From positions 1 through 63,241 of the forward strand of contig MFGN01000006.1 of the NCBI GenBank assembly GCA_001780285.1: 63,241 bases of DNA. The letters run 5' to 3'. A program made the translations under genes and the position numbers. Shown here one piece after another: positions 2,626-62,316 of this stretch. Positions within the stretch are counted from its first letter, which is position 1. Every line of letters starts with the position of its first letter. The notes below the pieces were generated by a model. The model was not told the origin of the DNA, searched no databases, and saw nothing but the letters and a program-made list of their open reading frames with translations. Source of the stretch: Candidatus Falkowbacteria bacterium RIFOXYD12_FULL_34_57. Its GTDB lineage: Bacteria; Patescibacteriota; Patescibacteriia; Patescibacteriales; UBA12075.

Positions 2626-5600
2626 TTACCAAGTAACAGCTTTAAATTTGGGCTGTAAGGTCGGATCTCCCATAAGAATATAATCATTGTCCCAACAATT
2701 ACCGGCGACACGAAGCTTCAAAAACATTTCTCCTGTAGTCAGGTTCGCATCTTCTCCTAAATATTTGATTCCATTGGTGATTATATTGCCACTAGAAGTC
2801 CAGGCTATGCCTACTGCACCAACATAGCCAAGCGCCCCCCTTCTAATCATATGCGCGCCAAAATTTCTATTGGTATATTGCCAATAATCATTAGTCAAAC
2901 AGGCGGTTCCGATAGAAACCGTCATATCAAGCCAGGGAATATTATTATAATCCATGGTTTGATACCAAGCATATGGACTACCATGATCAGCAAAACTAAT
3001 ATAGTTTTTATTTTTATAAACACTATATGGTGGATTTTTACTTTGCGTGCAATTAGCCAAGCTATCTTCTGTGTAACAGCTAGCGTTATAACCCGAAGCT
3101 GTTAACTTGTCCCGAATTTCTTTGGAGTAATTACTACAATAAGCAAAAGAGTGCCCCACAGACACACTGCTCCAATTAGCGCCGTAAATTTTATTTCTTA
3201 AATAGTCATAATTAATGCTGCGCGCAATATGAGCAGAAGCATCAGCTACGGATATACCATATATTCTTCCGGTATTTATTTGGACATCCACATTATCAAG
3301 AGAACCATATACCCAGTCCCGGGGTGCTCTATGTTGCCAAGAACCAGTACACTGATCATCGTAAACAGAATCCGGCAGGGCTCTGGGGGTAGCGATAATA
3401 GTTAAAAAATCCGGCGGATTGACAAAAAAATTATTTATAGCATAAGCAGCGTCCGTGTCAGCCTGTGCGGCATTTGCCGTAATCACGGCGCTGGCACTGC
3501 AGGAAGTATTGGTTCCCGAATCTCCTAAATCAGAAAAGGTTATCACCTCTTCTTTGGCAGCTGCTAAAAAGGGAGCGGCCAAAGACATTTTGGTATACAT
3601 ATCCGCTATAGCTGTACCCTTTTCTGTTGTATAGGATTGAGAATATTTTATAGTTAAATCATTTGGATTAACCAGTATTAATTTATTACTATTTGAGGTT
3701 CCTGAATACCACTTTTGCAACTCTTCTATGGTGTAATCAACCTGACAGGAAGCATTATTATTAATATAGGCTTGAGTCGGACCATCCAGGGTGCCAACCG
3801 TATATATTGTTTTACCGTTAATTATTCCTTGATAACTCGCTAAATTAGAATTATTCACAAAAATTATCGGGCTATTGTGTTCCGATGCGAGTACGCTGGC
3901 GATCAATCCTGATTTATAATCATTATAGTCCACCACCACCAAAGTATTATAACCAGTCCAATAACTAAAATAATCGCTGGCATTAATATTGTTAATATTT
4001 ACAGCATTCATTCCGGCTCCAACGGGTTTGGATGCTACTAATAAATTGTTTATAGCGGCCAAAGTGGTGCCCACAGTGGTTAAATGATCGGGTTCATATT
4101 GCTGCATGAAGTGAATACTGGAATCCACATCAAAATTACCAACCTCTTTATGATAAATAAGGGACGGATAAGCATGAATCGTGTTTCCGTCTTTCCATGT
4201 GGTAACCGGCACCATAGCTAAAACATCGCGCCAATTTTCATCAGCAATAAAAAATACTTCTTTCGCGCTATATTGGGCATTGTTTTTAGTATTGCTTATC
4301 GCGCATCCGCCGTTAATAGTGATATTCACAGAAGTATTAACAGTCGCGTTCACGGCATCTTTAACTGTAAAAGTAATCACATGGCTTCCGACCGATAAAT
4401 CATTTTTAAATAATTTATCCCCCGTGCCAAGCGCTCCGTCTATATTAGAATTCCATGAATAATTATATGGCACTACTCCGCCCGTAGCCGAACCAAACAA
4501 AGCCACCACCTCGTCAATACGTTTAAAAACACTATTGGGGGCTGGCGAATTAATTACTGGTAAAACAGGAGACGGCGATGTGATGGTTAAATTAATACTG
4601 GCGCTACCCGTATTTCCCTTGGCATCAATTGTAGTCATGGTTATAAAATGACTCCCAACTGAAAGATTATTGACATTAAAATTTTTCTCCGTGCTAATAT
4701 CCCCATCTAAACTAGAGCTCCATTTAAAGGTATGCGGCCAAACACCCCATTTAAGAACATTTGACACAAAAGATACATCATCCCCTTGTTGAAAAGTGCT
4801 GTTATTCGCAGGGGAATTAATTACAACATCAATTGGGACAAATGGGATTATTTGAAGATAATTAGTTTTAGAAACACTTGCATTGTTAGAGTCTGTCACC
4901 GTAAGAGTAATTGCGTGCACCCCCAAAGATAAATCATCTTTTTGAAAACTGTCCCAATTATCTATTTTAGGGCCAGAAGCATTCAACACTCCAGCTTTGT
5001 CAGATTTCCACAAGTATGAAAATGGAGCTGTACCCCCATCAACGCTTGCACTAAACCAAACAGTAAACATTTCTTCCATATTCTGACCATTGTGTGGACC
5101 CATATTTGCAATTATAAAATCAGATATTTTAAATGTTTCAGTATCTGTAACCACATTACTGGCACTATCGGTTACTGTTAGCGTAACTTGATGATCTCCA
5201 AGTGTCCAAGACGACACATCAACACTGGACCATTGATCTGTAGCAAAATCCCCTTCTAAATTAGAATTCCACTTGAAAATATAAGGGGTGGCTCCGCCAC
5301 TAACCTGAACACCGAAATTAGCAGGCCTGGTTGGGTCCCTGGCAAACTCCGTTTGCCAAGTATCAATATTGGCTATAAGAGTACCTGCCGGTAAAATATT
5401 TATTTGGATATTATCGGAATTTGCTTGACTGGCAGAGTCTGTAACGGTGGCGGTGATTATATGCGTTCCAATGGTCCACAAAGACACATCCTGCCACGGC
5501 CATTGATTAGTAGAAAAATCTCCTTCCAGATTAGAATTCCAGTTAAATGTATAAGGAGGTGTCCCACCTAAAACCAAAGCTTCAAAACTAACACCACCAA

Positions 5601-43692: not shown

Positions 43693-45435
43693 TTAGCCGT
43701 AAAGCTTTCTAATTTCACTTTTTACATTATCAATCAGTTCTTCATATAAACTATTATCCTTGAGCCATTTACATTTAATAACCTCTGTTTTTATTGGCAG
43801 GTTAACCAAATCATTTAGCTTAATTTCCCTATCCAGAGCCCTTTTTGCTTCTTTGTGAAAAGTTATTATGGACCTTAATATGTAATATTGTTTTTTCAGT
43901 GATGTATAGGTATCTTCATCGTCAAAAGCATTCTGGTGTAAAAAATCTTCACGCAAAGATTTTGTAGTATTCAAAACTAATTGTTCTCTGGCAGACAAAG
44001 CGTCAACTCCCACTAAACGAACAATTTCTTCAAGCCTTGCTTCTTCCTGAAGTAGGTTCATGGCTTCATTTCTAATTTCCGGCCAATCTTCTCCGGCCTC
44101 TCTGCGCATATAATCCAAAACATCATTTTCATATAAAGAGTAACTGTTAAGCCAATTTATTGCCGGAAAGTGGCGTTTAAATGCTAACTTGTCATCAAGT
44201 CCCCAAAAAACCTTTGCTACCCGCAAAGTATTTTGTGTTACCGGTTCAGATAAATCCCCACCCGGAGGCGAAACAGCTCCCACTACAGTAAGCGCCCCTT
44301 CTCGACTCTCCGATCCCAAACACTTTACTTTTCCTGCTCTTTCATAGAATGCGGCCGTCTTAGAGCCCAAATAAGCAGGATATCCCTCTTCCCCGGGCAT
44401 TTCTCCTAGGCGTCCCGATATTTCCCTTAAGGCCTCTGCCCATCTAGATGTGGAATCTGCCATCAAGGCCACTCTGTATCCCATGTCACGAAAATATTCA
44501 GCAATTGTTATTCCGGTATAAATAGATGCTTCGCGGGCTGCCACTGGCATATTAGAAGTATTGGCGATTAAAACAGTTCTTTCCATTAATGGCTTTCCCG
44601 TTTTTGGGTCTTCAAGTTCTGGAAACTCTAAAAGCACATCGGTCATTTCATTTCCACGCTCTCCGCATCCAATAAAAATAACTATCTCGGTGTCAGACCA
44701 TTTAGCAAGTTGGTGCTGCACCACTGTCTTACCAGCCCCAAATGGTCCGGGTACACACGCTGTACCACCCTGCACCACAGGAAAAAAAGTATCAATCACT
44801 CTTTGTCCGGTAATCATTGGCTCTCTTGGAGCTAATTTATTTTTTGTTGGTCTTGGGGCTCTAATTGGCCAAATTTGTAACATACAAATCTTTTTTCCAC
44901 CAACTTCAGCCACAATCTCTTCGATAGTAAATTCTCCGGCCTTAATATTATTAATTGTACCGCTAATTCCTGGTGGCACCATTATTTTATGCACAACTAA
45001 ACTGGTCTCCTGAACTGTTCCAATAATATCACCCTCCTCTACCTTATCCCCATTTTTTACAATCGGTTCAAATTTCCATTTTTTTGCGCGATCAAGACCA
45101 GGAACACTGATTCCTCTGGTAATAAACGGACCAGCAGCTTCTTCTAAAAGCCTTAAGGGCCTTTGAATTCCATCATAAAAATTAGTAAGAAGCCCTGGGC
45201 CAAGTTCTACTGAAAGTGAATGACCCTCCAAATAAACAGGTTCTCCTGGTCCAATACCAGAAGTATCTTCATATACCTGTATAGAGGCCTTATCTCCCCT
45301 CATTTCAATAATTTCTCCAATAAGTTTATGTTCGCTTACCTTTACCACATCATAAATATTAGCATCTTCCATTCCTTTTGCTACAATCAACGGACCGGAG
45401 ACTTTAACAATTGTTCCATGTTTTATATTTGTCAT
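43693..45435 (-). CDS. ntpA: V/A-type ATPase catalytic subunit A
   Basis: 580 aa. Walker A is [11 protein letters not shown]. Has the non-homologous insert typical of A subunits, plus [16 protein letters not shown]. Confidence 0.96.
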
Positions 45436-45585
45436 ATTTTTATTAAAATTTTTAATTTTTATAATTTTTAATTTTTAAATAAAATATTAAATTATAATTT
45501 TTAAACCATTCCATAAAACAACTTATTTTGTTTTTAAAAAATTAAAACATTATTTATAAAATTAAAAATTACAAAATTATAAAAA

Positions 45586-45918
45586 TTATTTAAGAATATC
45601 CGAACCAACTGCCTGCTCTACTATCTTTTTCAAATTCTTAAGCGCCACACCAGAGCTCCCCTTCGGTGATGGTACTGAAACGATAGCTGGCAGGGCGCGT
45701 GAGTAATATTCATCTAAAACTTTTTCTAATTTTTCTGCCCAATCTTCTGTAATAAAAACAATGGCATAATTTCCGCTATCCAAAATCTTTACAGCTTGTT
45801 CCTTGGCATTATTATCATTTAACCCAAAAACATCAATCCCCAGACTGCTAAATCCAAGAATGGCATTGTGATTTCCAATTATTGCAATTTTATACTCTTT
45901 CATATGAAATTTAGTCAT
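45586..45918 (-). CDS. V/A-type ATPase subunit F
   Basis: 110 aa (possibly starting at MKEYKIAIIG, 45903). Has IAIIGNHNAILGFSSLGIDVF and occupies the expected position between C and A. Confidence 0.85.
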   Translation of the reverse strand: MTKFHMKEYKIAIIGNHNAILGFSSLGIDVFGLNDNNAKEQAVKILDSGNYAIVFITEDWAEKLEKVLDEYYSRALPAIVSVPSPKGSSGVALKNLKKIVEQAVGSDILK

Positions 45919-45987
45919 CCGCTTAAGGCGGACCAGTTCTTTATTGTTTTTATTGTAAATTAAAGAGTCAAAAATCTATAAAATCAA

Positions 45988-46980
45988 TTAATATAAATTT
46001 CGCACCCTTTCTTTTATTTCTTCTCCTTTAATATTATTAATTTTTCCGGCCATAATAATCTGGATGTTGTGAATAGCGTTTACTTTTGCTAAAAAATAAG
46101 CCACCAAAACAAAAGGACCCTCTTTCTTAATGTGCGACTCTTGCAGCAATGCCACTATATGGTTATCCATCCCTTTTTCAAAACGCCAAAAATCACCTGA
46201 TTCTAAAAAAATATTTAAACTATTCTTTATTTGTAAATTAATAAATAAATCACTGATATCGTTTACCATTTCATGTAGACCCTTTTTGTATGCTCTGAGT
46301 AAATTGTTTTCATTACCGCCGACAATCGTATCTTTGCGCACATCATCCACGGGGCGATCTAATAATTTACTTCGAAGAACCAGCTTAATATTAGCAATAT
46401 CGATTTTTATTTTTATAAAGTCTATTAAATCTCTGTCTTTCATCTTAATAGCCTTATTTAAAATAAATTCAAAGTATTTTTTATCAAAATAAGCATCAAT
46501 TATTTGTGGTGTATTATTTTTTTCAAAAATTTCACAAGCATCTTTTATGATATCGCCATATTCGGGTGGTATATCGCTTGACGCCCCCTTGTTCAAAATA
46601 ACATTATAAAATTTTTCTTTTCCAATCATCCCCAGAGAGCTTAAATCTTCAATCTTTATATCTTTCCCGGCATACTTTGTCTTGAAAATAATTTTCAAAT
46701 TATTAAAATCATAAGGAGCTAACATTAAATCCAACACCCGCTTGTCTGGTGCGATAGATGACACAAAATCTCTCACCTGCCCCAAGTCATGAGCTAAAAC
46801 TTCTTCGTATTGCTCTGGATTGTCCACATCTAAAAGTTCATCAGCATAACTGAGGTCGTTAAAAATTTTAAAGCTCTTGTCGGCACTAGGAGCATCTATC
46901 ATTCTCTCCATATCATTATAATCAAATAATTTTTTTTCTACCTCCCTAATGGCTCCGGTTGGAAATAAGTATGAATTCAT
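45988..46980 (-). CDS. ntpC: V/A-type ATPase subunit C (d-like)
   Basis: The track ORF extends to 47034 and overlaps subunit E. The ATG at 46980 ([19 protein letters not shown]) avoids the overlap. All-helical, about 330 aa, in the expected position. Confidence 0.8.
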
Positions 46981-47005
46981 AAAATTAATAAAAATTTTGA
47001 ATTTA

Positions 47006-47575
47006 TTATTCAAAAAGACGCTTTGCAATTTCAACGCTAAATTCTTTTTTACTGGTGTTTATATAATTTTCTATGGTGTTATTAACTTCAACAATTTTAG
47101 AGGACAAAATAAAACCATCTTCCCCTTTTGGTAAATTTTTATCAGAAATTTTGTATGACAATCCCGCCTTTTGTATAGCTTTTTTTATCAAATCTTTTTT
47201 AGATGAGGAGGTAATAATTTCTGCATCTTCTACCATGTCAGTACTCTGAAGCATTTTAACCATCAAATTTATGAATTCTTCATCGTTCAACTTCAACAAT
47301 TTTTCTTTTGCAGTTTCAAAAACCTGATCAATAAGTTCTTGTTTAACGGTTAGAAGAATATTCTTCTTTAACATTCTTTCCTTAAACTCTGTTTGTTCTT
47401 GTATTTTCAATGCTCTTTCTTTACTTCTATCTTTTATAATTTGAATAGCGTTCACGATTTGCTGGTTTTTTTCTGCTAAAATTTTGTCCAATTCTTTTTG
47501 GCCATCACCTATAATATTCTCGGCTTTTTTATTAGCATCTGATAATATTTTGTTTGTAATATCGGTTAAAGACAT
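47006..47575 (-). CDS. ntpE: V/A-type ATPase subunit E
   Basis: 189 aa. N-terminal coiled coil ([13 protein letters not shown]...) plus a globular C-terminus. Confidence 0.85.
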
Positions 47576-47632
47576 AATATTGATTTATTGCGATTCTAAA
47601 TTACGAATTTCGAAATTTATTAAGATATTTAA

Positions 47633-48103
47633 CTATCCCACATTAATTCCGTTTAAAATTAATAAGCTTGTAAGCAATCCGAACACAGCATAAGTTTCTA
47701 CCATAGCGGCATAAATTACACCCTTGCCGACTTGGTCTGGTCTTTTAGCGAGTAAATAACAACCACTGGCACAAACTTTTCCCTGAAAAATTCCAGAAAA
47801 AAATCCAGTAAAGGCTATTGGTGTGCAAGCAAAAAATATTTGCCATCCAACATTTATATCAATCATTATAACCGATCCCAATAAACCAACTTTGGTCATA
47901 ACTAAAATTGCGGTTAAAAGACCATAGATTCCTTGGGTGCCAGGTAAGGCCTGCAGCAACAAAGTTTTACCAAATTTTTCAGGGTCTTCAGAAATTACTC
48001 CCGCTGCAGCTTGACCCGCAGTTCCAATACCATGTGCCGACCCAATACCGGACAATATAACGGCAAGAGCGGCACCTGAAATAGCAATTGCTAATCCTAA
48101 CAT
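47633..48103 (-). CDS. ntpK: V/A-type ATPase proteolipid subunit K (4-TM, duplicated hairpin)
   Basis: 156 aa. Has LSGIGSAHGIGTAG, LLLQALPGTQGIYG, FFSGIFQGKV and YAAMVETYAVFGL. Very close in pattern to Enterococcus hirae NtpK. Confidence 0.93.
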   Translation of the reverse strand: MLGLAIAISGAALAVILSGIGSAHGIGTAGQAAAGVISEDPEKFGKTLLLQALPGTQGIYGLLTAILVMTKVGLLGSVIMIDINVGWQIFFACTPIAFTGFFSGIFQGKVCASGCYLLAKRPDQVGKGVIYAAMVETYAVFGLLTSLLILNGINVG

Positions 48104-48154
48104 AGTTTTTTTATTAATGTGGAAATATATTTTTTATAATTCCAAATTAATCAA

Positions 48155-50143
48155 TTATTTTTTAATTAAATTAATATATTTATTTTCCCTAATAAAGGGG
48201 TGAAAAATTCGTCCCCCTCCTTCAAAAAATGTTTTAAAAAATTCAACATATTGCAAACGACCAGAGTGCACAAAAGCACCAACTAAACTAATTACCAAAT
48301 TCATAAGATGCCCACCAATCAAGACTAAAACCATGAGCAGCCAACCAATATAAGGAATCTTGTCATAGACCATTGCACCTACAATATTAACAACCATCCC
48401 AATAATACCAGTAGCAAGCCCCAGAGCTAATAAACGAGAATAGGACAAAATATCCGACACATATCCAGAAATCCCAAAATAAAGTTGGGTTAACCCCCCA
48501 AAAATTTTCATTATGGGGTTTTTGCTTTTTCCCTGAGTTAATACAACTAAAATAATTGCTGAAATTACGGCATATAAAGCTGCCTGATTCACACTTGGTG
48601 GCAACACTCCCTTTATGGTTGCTATCCAAAAACCAATAGTTAATAAAAAATAAATCCATACCCCAGAAGTCAAAAGTCCATCTTTTACTTCTCCTTGTTT
48701 TATCTTACAACTCAGGCTAATAAAATTTCCAAATACTAAATGAATATAACCCAACAATATTGAAAGTGCCAATATGGTTAGGGGATCTTTTACTGGATCT
48801 ACTTGCCTGATTGCAATCAGTGGTTTAGCGAGCCAAGCCAAGCTTTCTGGTAGATCATCCAAAACCACGCCGAACCAACCGCCAGTTAACCCCCCCGCTA
48901 TAAATGTTACTATACCGCCAAAAAATAATACTTGTAGTAATTTTTTTGTACCTCCGGTAAATTTAAAAAATTTCAAAAATATAAATGAACAAATCGTTAA
49001 AATAATTCCGTATCCCGCATCAGTTAAACAAAGACCAAAAAAAATGATAAAAAAACCAGCCAAAAATGGTGTTGGATCCACTTCGCCATACCTGGGGAAA
49101 CCATAAATACTTGTAACAAACTCAAATGGTGTCACAAGTTTGGAATTTTTCATAATAATCGGCACCGGTTCATCTTCTTTTATTTTTAGTTCTATGATAT
49201 CAAAAAAATCAGTAATTTTTTGTATTCCTTTCTTAAGTTCCGATAATTCAGTGTTTTTTATCCAACCCAAAACAGAAAAGGTGTTTTCCGTAAACTCAAA
49301 ATTTTCTTGAATATTTTCTTGTTTTAATTGCCAGGTTAAAAAATCAAAAATAATTTGTAAATTTTCAAAATGTTTATTGGCAATTTCCTGCACCTCGCTT
49401 TTTATTTTCCCTATTTCCGTTTCAACACCCTCTATTTCTTTATCTATTTCATCAATTCTCTCCCTAACAGAAATATTTCCCAGGGGCGATTCAATTAACT
49501 TAAAACTATTATTATTTAAAAAATTAAAAAATCTTCTTTCGTATTCTTTAATAAAAATAATATAAACAAAAGAACAAGAATCATTTTGCTCAACACGGGT
49601 GATGTTAATTTTTGTAAATTTTTTATTTATCTTATTGCAAAACTCATCATATTTATCATTAGCAATGCTTCCCAAAACCACTTTTACATTTTTTGTCTCT
49701 ATATCATTTTCGGTCAATGGTAAATTTTTCCATGGTAATAATTTTTTCTTTTCCTCGTTTAATTTTATAATTAAACTCTTTAAGGTATTAAATCCTTGCC
49801 CACAATCCTCAATTTTTTCGCAAACTTCAAAATATTTAAAATCATTTTGAAGCTTAAAAATTTCATCTAAATAGATATTTTTCTTCTCTTGGTTAATTTT
49901 TTCAGTTAAGGTTCGCGTATCCTGATGATATGAAGACAAAAAGTCAAGAGCATAAGTAATTTTGGATAATTTATATTCAGTATTAGTTGCTTCATCATTC
50001 CGTCTCTCCCGCACCAAAATTGCTGAAGCATCTTTGGCGGGCAATATTTCCATAAATCCTCTATCAAATAAAAACTCAAGGATTTCTTTCTTTGAATCAT
50101 TATGGGCAATAATGTTAATTTTTTTAATTTTAGCTACGGACAT
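48155..50143 (-). CDS. ntpI: V/A-type ATPase subunit I (a-like)
   Basis: 662 aa. Soluble N-terminal half plus a C-terminal half of about 7-8 TM helices, with YSRLLALGLATG (conserved Arg). Confidence 0.9.
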   Translation of the reverse strand: MSVAKIKKINIIAHNDSKKEILEFLFDRGFMEILPAKDASAILVRERRNDEATNTEYKLSKITYALDFLSSYHQDTRTLTEKINQEKKNIYLDEIFKLQNDFKYFEVCEKIEDCGQGFNTLKSLIIKLNEEKKKLLPWKNLPLTENDIETKNVKVVLGSIANDKYDEFCNKINKKFTKINITRVEQNDSCSFVYIIFIKEYERRFFNFLNNNSFKLIESPLGNISVRERIDEIDKEIEGVETEIGKIKSEVQEIANKHFENLQIIFDFLTWQLKQENIQENFEFTENTFSVLGWIKNTELSELKKGIQKITDFFDIIELKIKEDEPVPIIMKNSKLVTPFEFVTSIYGFPRYGEVDPTPFLAGFFIIFFGLCLTDAGYGIILTICSFIFLKFFKFTGGTKKLLQVLFFGGIVTFIAGGLTGGWFGVVLDDLPESLAWLAKPLIAIRQVDPVKDPLTILALSILLGYIHLVFGNFISLSCKIKQGEVKDGLLTSGVWIYFLLTIGFWIATIKGVLPPSVNQAALYAVISAIILVVLTQGKSKNPIMKIFGGLTQLYFGISGYVSDILSYSRLLALGLATGIIGMVVNIVGAMVYDKIPYIGWLLMVLVLIGGHLMNLVISLVGAFVHSGRLQYVEFFKTFFEGGGRIFHPFIRENKYINLIKK

Positions 50144-54029: not shown

Positions 54030-55145
54030 TTATCTGGTAGCCCCACTGTAAGTTATTGCTTGCATAGTGTTCCACTCATCGGTGGTCCTCGGTAATTTTC
54101 CAAAAATATCCTTAAAAATCTTTATTCCTTGTCTTTCCGAATTCAAATTTCTATTTTCGGCCTTTTGACGAAGCCCATAAGCCATAACTTTCACGGCCGC
54201 AGCATCATTTGAATTATTCATATCCGGAAAGCGCAAATAAATCTTCTTAAATTGCTCTTTGGCTTTATTTTCCGCTTCTTCGCTAAATCTGCTGGGCCAG
54301 CGTCCATTAGCAATTTTAATTGCATCAGCCAATTCGGTTTCATCTTCCGGTAATTTACCAAAAGCCTCTTTAAATGAATACATCACGGCGGCCCGCTCTC
54401 CCTCTCCAAGCTTCTTGGTATTATCATCCACCCCATAGGTGATAAATTGATTAATAGAATTCTGCATAGCTTCGGTTACAACAGATACGCCGATTAAAAG
54501 TTTTTGCAAATGCTTAATTTGATTTTGTTGTTCCTTAACCAAACTTCTGAGCTCTTTTAGTTCAGACAATATATCATCTAGCTGGCTATTTTTTAATTTT
54601 TCCGCATTTTTTTCTATTTTTTGAATCTGCTCATCTCTCGTACATTCTCCATAATAAGCTTTTTGTATACCCTTGCTATCTAAAACACATTTATTAGAAT
54701 AAGTTTTTCCATCTTTTCCGCATACCGGAGTATAATCCATAGTACAGGCTGTTGAATTATCTCCAATAGCAACTTGGATTTGATTACTATAAATTCCGCA
54801 TTTACCACCCAAGTATTCACAAACACGAACATGATAGACACCGCTGCCTGTAAACGCAGTTACTGTATCGTGATTGTACTCGGGGCTGGAAGAATAGTTA
54901 TACTTATCTCCTTCTCGCAAAGGATAAGTTGGATTTTCATTTTTTGACCAAACCAATTTAAACCCCTGAGATGAATAACCGTCCGCAACCCAGCTGACAT
55001 TCGCGCCATCCGCAGTAATAATAATTGACTTTACACTGTTTGTATCTGTTGCACTAACTCCTTCATTATAATTACCAAGCGCAGGCGATGAACTCAGCAC
55101 AAAAATAAAACAAGCGACTCCTAAAATTTTTTTTAAATTCTTCAT
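54030..55145 (-). CDS. Secreted protein with a Kazal-like domain
   Basis: 371 aa. Signal peptide is [25 protein letters not shown] beta-rich N-domain is followed by [35 protein letters not shown] (Kazal core Y.PVCG.DG.TY.N.C), then a coiled coil and a helical C-domain. Confidence 0.75.
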
Positions 55146-56406: not shown

Positions 56407-57555
56407 TTAAATCATTTTTTGAATAGCTTTTTTATAATATTCTATTTCATCTTTTTCTTGAGCAACAATTAATATCCCGATAGTGCCATTGATTGCGCAA
56501 CCCCAGTTAAAAACGACCAGCCCGCTCTTGCGCTTCGGATCATACTCTAAAGATCGGTCAAAATTCCAATCATTCAAATTGGTAAAATCCACATCATAAC
56601 CGCGTCCATGCCAGAATTTAGCGCCCAGTCTTTGAGCTATAAAAAACGGATAAGAAGCGCCGGTAAAACGAGGATTGCATTCCAAAAGCTGATACTGATT
56701 ATTATCGTAATTATCCTTTACAACCACCATATCAATTCCAAAGTGTCCCTTCATGCCGCATTCAAACATATATTGAGCCAAAACATCCGTAACATTTCTG
56801 GGATCATATTCAATCGGACCATAATTTCCTTTGTGCACGTCTCCTTTTAAAATCTGCGCCGTAGTGGCTACAAAATACAATTGTCCGCCTGTTACCCGAT
56901 ACTGAGAACTGATAAAACAATCCGAATCTGCTTTTTCCTGAATCTGGAACCTGACTCCGGGCTTTATTTTAGCCAATTGTTCGGCCAATTCCAAAAAATG
57001 CGCGCATTTATGCACCCCCATTCCGGAAACCGATCTGGAAAGCTTAAAATAACAAGGAAAGGGAAAAACATGCAAATCATTGATTTCTTCCACGGAGTTA
57101 AACAAAAAAGTTTTCGGCGTAGGCAATCCTAATTCCCGGGACTTTTTGATAAAAAAATTTTTTTCATTCATTCTGTCGGCAATACTAAACCATTTTTCAT
57201 CCGGACGAATACCATGAATTTTTTCGCCGAAATAAAATACGGAAAAATCATAATCACCATAATCCTTCAAAACATCAAAATCCTTGTCCCAAATAATATT
57301 TTCCGAACATTTTAAACCGATGCGGCGGAAATGATCCCTGACCCAATCATAATTCGGTTTTAAAATCGGAGAAAACTGAATAATATCTTCCCTGTGGGAT
57401 ATTCCCAAAACCCTGCCGGAATAAGCATCCAAACCGGAAACCTTATCAAGCTCTTCTTCTGTGGAGCAACCCCGAAGATCATGATTAATAATAACCGGCC
57501 TTCTTGAAATATCCCCCTCTTTTTGATTCCCGCAACACTCTCTAATCTTAATCAT
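56407..57555 (-). CDS. ATP-grasp fold ligase, paralog 1 (substrate unknown)
   Basis: 382 aa. Has CYFKLSRSVSGMGVHKC (Lys plus Gly-rich loop), RFQIQEK and the ECNPRFTGASYP (E-x-N Mg site). GGAGG lies 9 nt before the ATG. Clearly paralogous to 57961..59148. Confidence 0.8.
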   Translation of the reverse strand: MIKIRECCGNQKEGDISRRPVIINHDLRGCSTEEELDKVSGLDAYSGRVLGISHREDIIQFSPILKPNYDWVRDHFRRIGLKCSENIIWDKDFDVLKDYGDYDFSVFYFGEKIHGIRPDEKWFSIADRMNEKNFFIKKSRELGLPTPKTFLFNSVEEINDLHVFPFPCYFKLSRSVSGMGVHKCAHFLELAEQLAKIKPGVRFQIQEKADSDCFISSQYRVTGGQLYFVATTAQILKGDVHKGNYGPIEYDPRNVTDVLAQYMFECGMKGHFGIDMVVVKDNYDNNQYQLLECNPRFTGASYPFFIAQRLGAKFWHGRGYDVDFTNLNDWNFDRSLEYDPKRKSGLVVFNWGCAINGTIGILIVAQEKDEIEYYKKAIQKMI

Positions 57556-57803
57556 TTACTTTTTCCTCCTTTTGTTGGTATTTTTAGTTAAATTTATAAA
57601 ACTTATATATTAAGCTACTATTTTAAAAGAACAAAAAAACCGATTGCTTTTAAACAATCGGTTTTGGTATTTGAATTTTTAATTCACTAATTTACATAAC
57701 CAAAACCGATCCAACTAACAGTTGAATCAAAATAATAATTAAATTCTGGTTGAATATATTTTTCATATTGGATTTATTATAACACAGCCATAAAAAAAAT
57801 CAA
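57556..57803 (-). promoter_or_regulatory. Promoter plus leader-ORF transcription attenuator L1 (Ile/Leu-rich)
   Basis: TTGATT (57798-57803), 16 nt, TGtTATAAT (57776-57781), 9 nt, ATG. S0 is AACCAGAA (57744-57751). S1 is AUCGGUUUUGGU (57699-57710). S2 is ACCAAAACCGAUUG (57655-57670). The terminator is 57633-57665 with U7. Confidence 0.7.
57692..57766 (-). CDS. Leader ORF L1 (24 aa)
   Basis: MKNIFNQNLIIILIQLLVGSVLVM. Its stop codon directly follows segment S1. Confidence 0.5.
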   Translation of the reverse strand: MKNIFNQNLIIILIQLLVGSVLVM

Positions 57804-57827
57804 GAGGCATCTGTTTTTGATGCCTCT
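57803..57827. terminator. Hairpin terminator after ATP-grasp 2 / element C
   Basis: agaggcatc-tgttttt-gatgcctct with T/A runs on both sides. Confidence 0.7.
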
Positions 57828-57838
57828 TTTATCTTTTT

Positions 57839-57965
57839 CAAGAAAAGCCTGAAAGAATTTTTGATGTCCGCCTCAGGCGAAAGCGTAATGAATAACAAAA
57901 TATTTAATGTTAAACATTTTTTTACTTGATAAATAGTAAAAAATAGAAATTTCTATACGATTAAA
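57839..57965. repeat. Intergenic repeat element, decayed copy C
   Basis: Reads aagaaaagcctgaaagaatttttgatgtccgcctcaggcgaaagcgtaatgaataa...taaacatttttttacttgataaatagtaaaaaata...tttctatacgattaaa. It retains the ends and the AT-rich block of copy B. It lacks one GC hairpin and the whole CCCCC/GGGGG module. Its end overlaps the stop codon of ATP-grasp 2. Confidence 0.8.
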
Positions 57966-59148
57966 TTAATTTTTCAAATTTTTCCTTAATCCGCAATATT
58001 TCCTCCTCGTTATTTCCGAGAAAAACCACGCCGATGCTGCCATAGAGGACACTTCCCCAGTTAATAACCACCACTCCGTTCTTTTTAGTCCGATCATAAG
58101 CCAACTCGCTCAAATCCAAAAAATCCAAACTGCTATGATTAATATCATAAGACATACTGTTCCAATTTCTGGCACCAAGGCGTCTGGCTACCAAAAGCGG
58201 GTATGAAGCACCGGTATATCTAGGATTACATTCCAACATTTTATACTGATTACCGTTATTAGTTTTAATTACGGCCACATCTATACCAAAATAACCGCGC
58301 ATTCCATTCTTATACATATAATTTGCTACCGGATCGGTAATTGGGCGCAAATCATACGACACCGGCCCCCGATTTCCCTTATAAATAGCGCCGTCCAGAA
58401 TCTGTTCGGTGGTAGCCACAAAACTCAGCCCCGCATCAGAGATATAATATTGCGCGCTGGCAAAAACATCTGTTCCGGCATCTTCCTGAATCTGAAAACG
58501 GCAACCATCCTTCACATTTTCTAAATATCGACAAACCTCATCCATGCTTTTTACTGTCTCTGAGCCCATACCGGAAATAGATTTAGATAGTTTCAACCAT
58601 TGTTTTTTGGAAAAATCAATATTTGCATTATCTAATTCTGCACGAGAATTAAAACAAGTGGTTTTCGGAATAGCTAAACCTAGTTTTTGGCACAAAATTA
58701 TAAAATCATTTTTTTCATTCATTTCTTTAACAATTTGATGCCAAGAATCGTTTGGTATAGACTCATGAGCTTTATCACCGAAGAAAAAAACAGATAACCC
58801 ATAATCACGAAAATTCTTAAGCAAATTGCCGGTAGTTACAAAACTATCATTCCATATTATACTTCCGGCAACTTCCAGACCCACTTCCCGATAATGGCTG
58901 CTTATCCATGGATATAAGCCTTTTAAAGCTTGATTAAACTGTACAACATCTTCTTTGTGCGTAATGCAAAAAACTCTGCTGGCATGACCGCGCACGCCAA
59001 GCTTTTCGGATAATTCTTCTGAATCAGCATACTCATTAGACTCTTTTGATACTTCCCTGATAGGGTAATCACCGACTGCGTCAGTAACTTCATGGTTGAT
59101 AACCATTCCAATCTCTCCGTCCGTCCTGTGGTTTAATACTTCACTCAT
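57961..59148 (-). CDS. ATP-grasp fold ligase, paralog 2 (substrate unknown)
   Basis: The track ORF starts at GTG 59151. The ATG at 59148 (MSEVLNH) lies 6 nt after AAGGAG. Has WLKLSKSISGMGSETV, RFQIQED and ECNPRYTGASYP. Confidence 0.8.
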   Translation of the reverse strand: MSEVLNHRTDGEIGMVINHEVTDAVGDYPIREVSKESNEYADSEELSEKLGVRGHASRVFCITHKEDVVQFNQALKGLYPWISSHYREVGLEVAGSIIWNDSFVTTGNLLKNFRDYGLSVFFFGDKAHESIPNDSWHQIVKEMNEKNDFIILCQKLGLAIPKTTCFNSRAELDNANIDFSKKQWLKLSKSISGMGSETVKSMDEVCRYLENVKDGCRFQIQEDAGTDVFASAQYYISDAGLSFVATTEQILDGAIYKGNRGPVSYDLRPITDPVANYMYKNGMRGYFGIDVAVIKTNNGNQYKMLECNPRYTGASYPLLVARRLGARNWNSMSYDINHSSLDFLDLSELAYDRTKKNGVVVINWGSVLYGSIGVVFLGNNEEEILRIKEKFEKLI

Positions 59149-59405
59149 CACTTTCTCCTTTTTTGAAAAATTAAATTGATAATATATTACTAAAAAATTT
59201 CAAGGAACAAAAAATATAACTAAAAAACCGATTCTTTTCAAATCGGTTTTTTGTATGTCATTTAAAATTTTAATTTAAATTTTTGCACACACCAAAACCG
59301 ATCTGCTAAAAAAGTAGAAAAAGAAAAATGAATAGGTTTTGGTGATTAAATTTTTCATAAATTTATTATTATATACATGATAGCAAAAAATATAACAAAA
59401 GTCAA
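59149..59405 (-). promoter_or_regulatory. Promoter plus leader-ORF transcription attenuator L2 (Phe-rich)
   Basis: TTGACT (59400-59405), 17 nt, TATCAT. A TATAAT (59368-59373) lies 9 nt before the ATG. S0 is CACCAAAACC (59335-59344). S1 lies within 59286-59304. S2 is 59241-59257. The terminator is 59222-59250 with U6. Confidence 0.75.
59275..59358 (-). CDS. Leader ORF L2 (27 aa)
   Basis: MKNLITKTYSFFFFYFFSRSVLVCAKI. Confidence 0.55.
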   Translation of the reverse strand: MKNLITKTYSFFFFYFFSRSVLVCAKI

Positions 59406-59443
59406 TAGTTTTTGATTACTTTTTATATGTTTTTGCTAATATT

Positions 59444-59473
59444 AAAAAACTCGCCTTATTTATAAAGCGAGTT
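59444..59473 (-). terminator. Intrinsic terminator after 59488..59862
   Basis: Minus strand: aactcgc-tttataaataag-gcgagtt followed by ttttt. Confidence 0.7.
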
Positions 59474-59487
59474 ATTTCTGAAAAAAA

Positions 59488-59862
59488 TTATTTATGAAGA
59501 GAAACAATTTCCTCTCCAATGGTTGTAAAATTGGCATCCAGCCATTCCGGAAGCCTTTCGTTTAATTCCCGGATGCATTCTTCTTTTTCCAAATCTTGAT
59601 GTTTTTTATAAATTTCCCAAAATATCTTAAGGCCTGTGTGAGTATTACTGATAATTCTTATAGCTACCTCTTGGTTTGGAACAATATTTTTTTCTTCATG
59701 ATCCACACAGGAAAATTTTACAACATATTTATCGTTTAAGCTGATAAACCCGGATTGCAATAAAAATCTATCCACATCTTTTAACTTAAGTTTTTCAAAA
59801 AGCCTCTCAAACATAGCGACTTTCATCAATTTTTCTGTCATTACCTTCTTCTTTTCTGTCAT
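59488..59862 (-). CDS. Hypothetical protein (124 aa)
   Basis: AGGAGG precedes the ATG. The start region contains an 18-nt direct repeat (59831-59848 and 59852-59869) that duplicates the SD-like GAAGG plus ATGACAGAAAA. Confidence 0.55.
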   Translation of the reverse strand: MTEKKKVMTEKLMKVAMFERLFEKLKLKDVDRFLLQSGFISLNDKYVVKFSCVDHEEKNIVPNQEVAIRIISNTHTGLKIFWEIYKKHQDLEKEECIRELNERLPEWLDANFTTIGEEIVSLHK

Positions 59863-62127: not shown

Positions 62128-62316
62128 CTACTCTACAAAGAATATAATTTTTGATTCTTCTCCCCTTTTGATTTCTTTAATTTGATATATAGGCACAAAC
62201 ATCCGAATCGGTCTTTCTGCATTTCCTGCATTATACCCTTTAGCTTTTTCATAGTTTTTTAATTTCGTAAATTCTTCTGCGGAAAAAAATACCTCTACTG
62301 TTGCATACTGCGTCAT
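62128..62316 (-). CDS. Small hypothetical protein (62 aa) controlled by attenuator L3
   Basis: GGAGG lies 8 nt before the ATG. Sequence is MTQYATVEVFFSAEEFTKLKNYEKAKGYNAGNAERPIRMFVPIYQIKEIKRGEESKIIFFVE. Confidence 0.6.
   Translation of the reverse strand: MTQYATVEVFFSAEEFTKLKNYEKAKGYNAGNAERPIRMFVPIYQIKEIKRGEESKIIFFVE

Follow-up and report, generated by a model that had tools for sequence, protein, structure and literature searches.

A putative phenylalanine-responsive leader-peptide attenuator upstream of an ATP-grasp ligase gene in a Falkowbacteria genome

The DNA discussed here is positions 1 to 63,241 of contig MFGN01000006.1 (NCBI GenBank assembly GCA_001780285.1) from Candidatus Falkowbacteria bacterium RIFOXYD12_FULL_34_57, a member of the Patescibacteriota, and we refer to this whole stretch of 63,241 nt as the window. 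On its minus strand lies a gene for an ATP-grasp protein that we call ligase A, and in front of that gene there is a promoter, a short open reading frame (ORF) with a run of Phe codons, and four segments (S0 to S3) with alternative pairing partners, which together we call leader A. In our view leader A is probably a ribosome-mediated (leader-peptide), Phe-responsive transcription attenuator that controls ligase A. All of its parts were read directly on the minus strand and are as follows, beginning with the end of the preceding gene.

59473 to 59444, minus: intrinsic terminator of the upstream gene (59862 to 59488), an ordinary terminator with an S1:S2-type z of 0.5
59405 to 59377, minus: promoter of leader A, with -35 TTGACT (59405 to 59400), a 17-nt spacer and TG-extended -10 TATCAT (59382 to 59377)
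59373 to 59368, minus: alternative -10, TATAAT, exactly 9 nt before the ATG
59358 to 59275, minus: leader ORF A, 27 codons, MKNLITKTYSFFFFYFFSRSVLVCAKI, with a 5' untranslated region (UTR) of 0 to about 12 nt
59344 to 59335, minus: S0, the anti-antiterminator strand, CACCAAAACC, codons 5-8; its partner in the free RNA is GGUUUUGGUG of S1
59328 to 59308, minus: regulatory codons 11-17, TTT TTC TTT TTC TAC TTT TTT (FFFFYFF)
59306 to 59283, minus: extended S1, GCAGAUCGGUUUUGGUGUGUGCAA, the 3' part of leader ORF A, with S0 or S2 as partner
59303 to 59286, minus: core of S1, GATCGGTTTTGGTGTGTG
59257 to 59241, minus: S2, CATACAAAAAACCGATT
59257 to 59240, minus: extended S2, CATACAAAAAACCGATTT, the 5' arm of the terminator and its 5' flank, common to antiterminator and terminator
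59252 to 59222, minus: predicted intrinsic terminator S2:S3, with a stem of 12-13 bp, a 5-nt loop and U6
59234 to 59223, minus: S3, GAATCGGTTTTT, ending in the T6/U6 run at 59227 to 59222
59160 to 59155, minus: AAGGAG, ribosome-binding site of ligase A
59148 (ATG) to a stop at 57961, minus: ligase A, ATP-grasp, 395 aa

The promoter matches the consensus at 10 of 12 positions. No Shine-Dalgarno sequence is present before leader ORF A, and its codons 9-17 read YSFFFFYFF, that is six Phe and two Tyr codons. The S0 sequence is a perfect complement of GGTTTTGGTG within S1, and the S1:S2 antiterminator is a helix of 20 bp with internal loops. The upstream gene ends in its own terminator and leader A is thus a separate transcription unit. 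The 156-nt leader has a fold with z = -3.8, none of 200 shuffles being as stable. A preliminary description, made from the sequence alone, had claimed the promoter with a TATAAT 9 nt before an ATG, the ORF with its Phe run, and the S0:S1, S1:S2 and S2:S3 complementarities followed by U6, and all of these are present where it placed them; the "about 70 nt" that it gave for the distance to AAGGAG and the ligase ATG is by measurement 62 and 74 nt respectively past the last U.

The behaviour of the leader as a switch was modelled by ribosome-mask folding, in which the 5' part is covered up to 12 nt beyond the first base of the A site and the remainder is folded. For free leader A RNA the most stable structure combines S0:S1 with the terminator (-30.5 kcal/mol), and structures lacking the terminator reach -25.0 kcal/mol at best. 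A mask that places the A site at any of codons 3-14 makes the antiterminator the most stable structure, by about 6 kcal/mol, a margin also obtained when the first 40-46 nt are covered, and with the A site at codon 15 or later the terminator is restored, so that Phe codons 11-14 are the last stall positions that leave S1 free. In 13 of the 17 members of the leader family described below, the switch boundary lies immediately 3' of the aromatic or hydrophobic run. The preliminary description had read the locus as classical attenuation and had called for the energies of the S0:S1 plus S2:S3 and S1:S2 states to be compared; mask folding gave the three states it predicted, including sequestration of S2 by S1 when a ribosome stalls in the Phe run and formation of S2:S3 when it nears the end of the ORF, and every computational test that we ran came out in favour of that reading.

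The attenuator most likely senses Phe-tRNA, and we predict that it would respond in the following way. Transcription from the strong sigma-70-type promoter would give a leaderless or near-leaderless transcript that opens with the 27-codon ORF. When Phe-tRNA is charged and plentiful, the ribosome would cross FFFFYFF and move onto S1 and the stop codon; S2 would then be free for S3, and RNA polymerase would terminate at U6 (about 59222), ahead of the ligase gene. When Phe-tRNA is scarce, the ribosome would stall at Phe codons 11-14 with S0 covered and S1 uncovered, the uncovered S1 would pair with S2, no terminator would form and ligase A would be transcribed. If there were no translation, S0 could hold S1 and the terminator would form. 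Coupling of ribosome and polymerase is presumed throughout.

The window has three paralogous copies of this element, the other two lying before a second ATP-grasp gene (ligase B) and before an ORF of 62 aa. Leader A occupies 59405 to 59222, and the parts of the other two, copies B and C, are given here.

57803 to 57636, minus: putative attenuator B, before ligase B (57555 to 56407), promoter TTGATT-16-TGtTATAAT
57766 to 57692, minus: leader ORF B, MKNIFNQNLIIILIQLLVGSVLVM
57751 to 57743, 57711 to 57696, 57670 to 57655 and 57648 to 57636, minus: S0, S1, S2 and S3 of copy B, the last followed by a U run
62543 to 62366, minus: putative attenuator C, before the 62-aa ORF (62316 to 62128) upstream of metG, promoter TTGACT-17-TGcTAGTAT
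62507 to 62433, minus: leader ORF C, MKNIYTRIYSYMHLFWLKQVGFNV
62451 to 62433, 62408 to 62388 and 62380 to 62366, minus: S1, S2 and S3 of copy C, the last followed by a U run

The three copies agree in promoter type, in an MKN start, in the placing of S0 (codons 5-8) and of S1 (at the 3' end of the ORF), and in having the same S2/S3 core; the S0 strands of B and C are at the same codon positions as in A but differ in sequence. For the motif AAAACCGAT 1.5 occurrences would be expected in the window; there are 8, all of them in leader A and its two paralogs. The S1:S2 z-scores are -7.2, -4.7 and -5.0 for A, B and C respectively, and the background, given by roughly 70 hairpins of the window that resemble terminators, is centred near -0.3. 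When all of these hairpins were scanned no further copies came to light, the extra matches being a probable chance match within a gene (3168 to 3148) and an unrelated repeat. Mask folding of copy B gave an antiterminator for codons 6-16 (NQNLIIILIQL). Paralog B would thus exert equivalent control of ligase B through Ile and Leu codons, and paralog C of the 62-aa protein through a mixed Tyr/His/Phe/Trp leader.

The 62-aa ORF (62128 to 62316, minus) ends in ...IIFFVE. Leader C has this one gene behind it, and between the gene and metG is a terminator of its own. Pfam and NCBIfam gave no match to the protein, and among the loci that we collected none encodes a homolog. It is pure speculation that this Glu-terminated protein, if co-regulated with the ATP-grasp ligases, might be a ligase substrate or carrier.

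For comparative analysis 164 loci around ligase homologs were gathered (cited by numbers such as L007), and the upstream regions were scanned for a short ORF and for a terminator with its complementary S1. The leader architecture is confined to a clade in which the ligase aligns from its N-terminus, made up of Patescibacteria metagenome-assembled genomes (MAGs) and low-GC MAGs labelled Gammaproteobacteria, and the leader-bearing ligase relatives have about 35-40% identity; it was found in none of the approximately 130 cyanobacterial or Chromatiales loci. The promoter design TTGACx-16/17-TGnTAnnnT precedes most members of the family. The terminator sequences vary by locus (AGAGACCGC, AAGCUGGUCUC, AAAACCGGCCUC, AAGCCACC, AGGUCGCC and others) and S1 changes along with them. 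When each S1:S2 duplex was ranked among 17, the locus's own was first in 10 loci and second or third in the others, where the rivals were paralogs. The one other contig shown for this organism, L165, includes leader C and does not differ from the window, and no close relatives were found that could be used for synonymous or compensatory changes, the best ligase homolog being 40% identical.

In an alignment of 10 sequences made with MAFFT, 94% of cells in the antiterminator helix are paired and 5 of its 12 pairs have changed on both sides. None of 500 shuffles reached the antiterminator covariation score, and when the partner is slid by 1-3 columns pairing falls to 26-57%. For the terminator helix the corresponding figures are 96% of cells and 7 of 11 pairs, columns 135-143 being common to it and the antiterminator. 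Thus there are two mutually exclusive helices, each supported by covariation, and this is the signature of a switch; covariation in the segments had been put forward in the preliminary description as a check. The ORF is also conserved. Of the 17 leaders, 16-17 have an ORF that begins with AUG and stops between S1 and the terminator arm, the number expected from shuffles being 3.0, the start codons of the family ORFs having been picked by eye.

Both helices would co-vary regardless of what drives the switch, and one could suppose that it is real but set by a trans-acting factor (an RNA-binding protein, small RNA, tRNA or metabolite), with the ORF incidental or untranslated; tRNA-Phe-like folds in the 5' UTRs of L085 and L086, described below, hint at extra RNA-level control. 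However the regular presence of the ORF between S1 and S2 argues against this, as do the closeness of AUG and -10 box (6-13 nt in 12 of 22 leaders), the keeping of amino-acid runs while the nucleotides diverge, the lack of any Rfam riboswitch or T-box match, and the lack of a leftover conserved unpaired motif for binding. We consider a trans-acting factor improbable. A riboswitch or T-box leader was rejected as a candidate, there being no Rfam aptamer or T-box match in the window or the leaders.

The leaders before single or first ligases have mostly F/Y/W runs, examples being as follows.

L007: MDYAKNNWFFFFSRH, run NNWFFFF
L086: MNYTKNNWFFFNFFSRHER, run NNWFFFNFF
L013: MKHIYSSNFFFFFGASRGW, run NFFFFF
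L093: MIINSKNWFYFNFYGFFRKTGFCVSSNT, run NWFYFNFYGFF
L006: ...AFYFYWFFG...
L160: ...NFYWFGFFYKF...

The short ORF with a Phe run had been named beforehand as a test by which homologous loci could refute the proposal, and it is kept in all six of these. The seven codons that precede the switch boundary were taken as a sensing window; in the sensing windows of the family Phe accounts for 30% of the residues and in the proteins of the 63-kb window for 5.4% (p = 8e-18), and F+Y+W together are 45% against a background of 10%. In two genomes there is a second ligase with an Ile/Leu run in its leader, LIIILIQLL in the window and LIIDILVLIL in L013. With regard to translation, the distance from -10 to AUG of 6-13 nt in 12 of the 22 leaders includes B (9 nt) and C (7 nt), and is 18 nt in A if TATCAT is used or 9 nt if TATAAT is used. 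No Shine-Dalgarno sequence is present in the leaders, and given these two properties leaderless or near-leaderless translation is likely.

The ORF could also be seen as an independent hydrophobic-peptide gene, such as a type I toxin or small membrane protein, that happens to lie before the ligase, as the element has its own promoter and terminator and some members resemble a transmembrane helix (L001, with 22 hydrophobic residues, and window B). This we regard as very improbable: orthologs are of 15-19 aa or have a D or N residue within the run (L007, L013a, L085, L093), nothing in the peptide is conserved apart from its composition, S1 mimics S3 in every locus, which would be needless for such a gene, and the element is always directly upstream of a gene on the same strand. 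A small toxin or membrane peptide was rejected on ortholog length and on the S1 mimicry of S3, no antisense RNA having been looked for. Sensing of membrane insertion or of the signal recognition particle by the nascent peptide was also rejected, as we infer that a peptide of 15-37 aa would still be in the exit tunnel when the decision is made.

The expectation for leader-peptide attenuation is that the codons of the leader match the function of the gene behind it, and whole loci of the Patescibacteria type were scanned for further leader elements. In L085 the leader MATTTTCQNNWNFFFFFK... (NNWNFFFFF) precedes a tRNA-Phe(GAA) gene and a class I/II aminotransferase gene, and in L009 a leader with ...FISITGLIIK... 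has a LeuA/CimA-like synthase gene behind it. From classical attenuation one would expect cognate pairings such as these. The L085 tRNA-Phe(GAA) gene (2033 to 2107, minus; Rfam 57 bits, and also found by ARAGORN) lies between the Phe-run leader with its terminator and the aminotransferase gene, and thus appears to be a tRNA gene behind a leader-peptide attenuator for its own amino acid. L006 has a LLLLALLLGL leader before a 90-aa ORF and another before a 558-aa protein without a Pfam family, and L005 has two leaders after metG. Additional targets of unknown function are a 100-aa ORF, a 45-aa ORF and the 151-aa ORF that heads the L005 ligase operon. The further family leaders are located as follows.

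L006, 51 to 205 and 656 to 805
L160, 1900 to 2065
L005, 2869 to 3010 and 3209 to 3350

In three loci a tRNA-Phe-like fold is present in the ligase 5' UTR past the leader terminator (L085 2885 to 2956, L086 about 733 to 806, L007 about 3900 to 3960). It has acceptor and T arms, an anticodon loop CUGAAAA and a degenerate D arm, scores 26.4 bits on the Rfam tRNA model (gathering score 29), and can be aligned to the true tRNA-Phe found in its locus. The fold may act in processing or mimic a tRNA, and has no counterpart in leader A of the window.

Both ligases of the window match Pfam ATP-grasp_3, the figure for ligase A being 29 bits against a cut-off of 23.2. The best match of the ligase-family profile is the L-amino-acid ligase LdmS (PDB 7r8p, E = 6e-10, about 165 residues) and the next is BL00235 (3vot, E = 6e-5). 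Ligase A is thus similar to characterised ATP-grasp L-amino-acid ligases, and its dipeptide-forming activity is putative. A set of 5.8 billion proteins has 23 homologs of ligase A, the best with 40% identity; the nearest loci are in Patescibacteria MAGs (Falkowbacteria, Moraniibacteria and Nomurabacteria) and a few low-GC MAGs labelled Gammaproteobacteria, and more distant homologs are cyanobacterial and from Chromatiales. The two ligases of each genome come out as sisters in a neighbour-joining tree, although the tree is weak given the divergence, and this within-genome pairing speaks against Phe-type and Ile/Leu-type ligases as orthologous groups. The split looks to be lineage-specific, or the ligases to have been homogenised by gene conversion.

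The ligases are followed on the 3' side by a gene for an ArgE/DapE-type M20 deacylase and then one for a Kazal-domain protein, and Falkowbacteria locus L005 is syntenic, with metG, ligase, M20 (55% identity) and Kazal-domain protein (66% identity). The last of these in the window (54030 to 55145, minus) is of 371 aa, has a segment resembling a signal at its N-terminus as well as a Kazal-type serine protease inhibitor domain, and is found in the same position and with 66% identity in the Falkowbacteria loci L005, L088 and L092. No homologs of the 62-, 124-, 153- and 203-aa proteins of the window were found beside other ligases. By analogy with the LdmS/HmrA pair discussed below, ligase A may act on Phe or other aromatic amino acids and ligase B on Ile and Leu, with M20 reversing the reaction.

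As each ATP-grasp gene adjoins a short ORF, one may ask if the short ORFs encode precursors of ribosomally synthesised and post-translationally modified peptides (RiPPs) that are substrates of the adjacent ligases, as for graspetides/microviridins or PGM1-type peptide ligases. One distant ligase homolog has a precomputed match to PF18105, which we take to be the PGM1 C-terminal domain. However leaders A, B and C have neither Asp nor Glu, which makes an omega-ester or omega-amide cross-link impossible, and there is no conserved recognition motif. Further, related leaders precede tRNA, aminotransferase and LeuA-like genes, and the ligase profile is nearest to ligases for free amino acids. We give a RiPP precursor almost no credence, and a graspetide precursor was rejected for the lack of acidic residues.

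Returning to the proposal of a ribosome-mediated Phe attenuator, several observations weigh against it or limit it. The same tracts read in the other two frames have 25 and 24 Phe, against 36 in frame, so that the Phe signal may in part reflect selection for a tract that is U-rich and free of structure. Window C, L005 E1 and E2, and L001 have mixed hydrophobic leaders and the L010 leader MRKLSKNYNTILDFSATSSDLYRV has no run, and amino-acid specificity is thus not universal. For copy C no mask displaces the terminator as the equilibrium fold. S0 is present in about 11 of 17 family members and missing in about 6. The preliminary description had the untranslated RNA adopting S0:S1 with the terminator, and this stands for the full free RNA of leader A; it does not stand for nascent RNA lacking S3, which prefers S1:S2 at equilibrium even without a ribosome, so that any enforcement of termination by S0 in untranslated RNA would have to be kinetic. 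The transcript start, read-through and a 3' end at about 59222 are predictions. A promoter-like sequence, TTGAAA-17-TATATT (59241 to 59213, minus), overlaps the leader A terminator with its -35 in the hairpin loop, and could drive ligase A without the leader, although promoter-like matches in this region are rarer than in shuffles and it may be a chance match. Finally, it is a paradox that a ligase that might consume Phe should be induced during Phe shortage.

The first two of these observations could be accommodated if the element were a ribosome-dependent attenuator that reports general translation capacity, coupling or the slow decoding of U-rich hydrophobic codons, the Phe run being a by-product of a U-rich unstructured spacer, and it is consistent with this that U is 52-62% at all three codon positions. 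However runs of 4-6 identical Phe codons recur at 35-50% GC (L013, L007, L086), and aromatic runs are still seen where the genome has 49-50% GC. The runs have taken in Trp (UGG) and Tyr codons, which one would not expect of a simple tract of U, and the leaders with Ile/Leu codons do not consist of such tracts, as seen in L013 at 49% GC. Also the recognisable targets, tRNA-Phe with aminotransferase and the LeuA-like synthase, are cognate. A general translation sensor is therefore in our view unlikely, and it, a trans-acting factor, an independent peptide gene and a RiPP precursor are all less well supported than the ribosome-mediated Phe attenuator.

Leader-peptide attenuation is a classical mechanism (PMC1183508, PMC3082878), and the proposed attenuator resembles those of enterobacterial pheA and pheST (pheL, RF01859, PMC3082878) in having a short promoter-proximal ORF with a run of Phe codons, and an antiterminator that uses the 5' arm of the terminator and is selected, here in silico, by a stalled ribosome. 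It differs in that S1 is inside the ORF, there is no Shine-Dalgarno sequence and the ORF starts at or near the 5' end, and also in that the host is Patescibacteria-like and the target is an ATP-grasp ligase gene, not one for Phe biosynthesis or PheRS. Rfam Phe_leader (RF01859) gave no match in window 57400 to 59600 even at E <= 10, and a weak one to the L086 leader (31.8 bits, E = 0.065, gathering threshold 55 bits). With no significant Rfam match in the window, leader A is not a sequence homolog of Phe_leader. Rfam searches of the window and of each leader gave two tRNAs at gathering level and chance-level matches at permissive thresholds.

In mycobacteria leaderless polycysteine short ORFs are cis-acting, amino-acid-responsive attenuators of downstream genes (bioRxiv 10.1101/834739), and our element has likewise a codon run for one amino acid and, with its probably leaderless short ORF, is in initiation more like these than the enterobacterial leaders, although the phylum and the amino acid are different and it has a canonical terminator/antiterminator pair with covariation. 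Copy B, L013b and L009 are like the multivalent ilv/leu attenuators (E. coli ilvGMEDA; Corynebacterium ilvBNC, PMC11857589) in having Ile/Leu/Val-rich leaders and a terminator switch; in contrast to those, the targets in the window are ligases and not biosynthetic enzymes, and there is no sequence relationship.

The closest parallel for the genes is in Staphylococcaceae, where the hmrA/ldmS operon encodes the M20D peptidase HmrA and the L-Asp-L-Met ligase LdmS and is controlled by CodY/CymR or an S-box riboswitch; in some species an S-box terminator switch derepresses the operon on Met starvation, and the authors note the paradox that a ligase consuming a scarce amino acid is induced (PMC9486568). 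There as here a gene resembling ATP-grasp L-amino-acid ligases is associated with an M20 hydrolase gene, behind a terminator-type switch that opens, by prediction in our case, on starvation for a single amino acid. The differences are that sensing is there by a SAM riboswitch or repressors and here would be by a leader peptide, that the sequence relationship is distant, and that the window M20 is ArgE/DapE-like and that of hmrA/ldmS is M20D. The preliminary description knew of no earlier report for this kind of genome or for an ATP-grasp ligase, and our full-text literature searches likewise found no paper on attenuation in Patescibacteria (the CPR, or Candidate Phyla Radiation) or on a leader peptide before an ATP-grasp gene. 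The leader family in Patescibacteria-like genomes is thus apparently undescribed.

Some other features of the window can be recorded here. V/A-type ATPase subunit genes are present at 43693 to 50143, minus (V_ATPase_I, and an ATP-synt_ab subunit with a V/A-type C-terminal domain), and there are genes for DNA polymerase III alpha, ThrRS, GroEL and a surface-type repeat protein of 1865 aa. There is also a repeat, roughly 170 nt in length, that contains a GC-rich hairpin (CCGCCTGRGGCGG) as well as two hairpins resembling terminators (GGGGATCTCCCGAAGGGGGATTATTTTTT and AAAGCCTTTCAGGCTTTT); it has no Rfam match and could be a small RNA gene or a dispersed repeat.

54000 to 53770, minus: full copy of the repeat
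31610 to 31420, minus: full copy of the repeat
57890 to 57840, minus: partial copy, just upstream of leader B

A wider reading, which we offer as no more than a tentative suggestion, is that related Patescibacteria (CPR) genomes have a regulon of leaderless leader-peptide attenuators, with codons that report the amino-acid specificity of the target gene, and that ligase A (Phe/aromatic), ligase B (Ile/Leu) and M20 form a module for making and breaking dipeptides that is turned on when one tRNA is uncharged. If so, the dipeptide module would serve for buffering or salvage in biosynthesis-poor symbionts, and in some lineages the leaders would also gate a tRNA-Phe gene and the tRNA-Phe-like 5' UTR folds. 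The Patescibacteria are largely uncultivated and the searchable literature on their gene regulation is sparse, and a conserved sensor of charged tRNA that can be read from sequence would show that reduced genomes monitor specific amino acids. Such sensors would also put labels on genes of unknown function, tying Phe or Ile/Leu to two ATP-grasp ligases, to small ORFs and to the 558-aa protein, and would predict substrate preferences for the ligase/M20 pair, in parallel to the unexplained staphylococcal LdmS/HmrA pair. The element would be a case from nature in which a classical terminator switch is driven by leaderless translation. Attenuation as such is classical, and the value of the finding would lie in providing a regulatory and functional handle in an understudied phylum.

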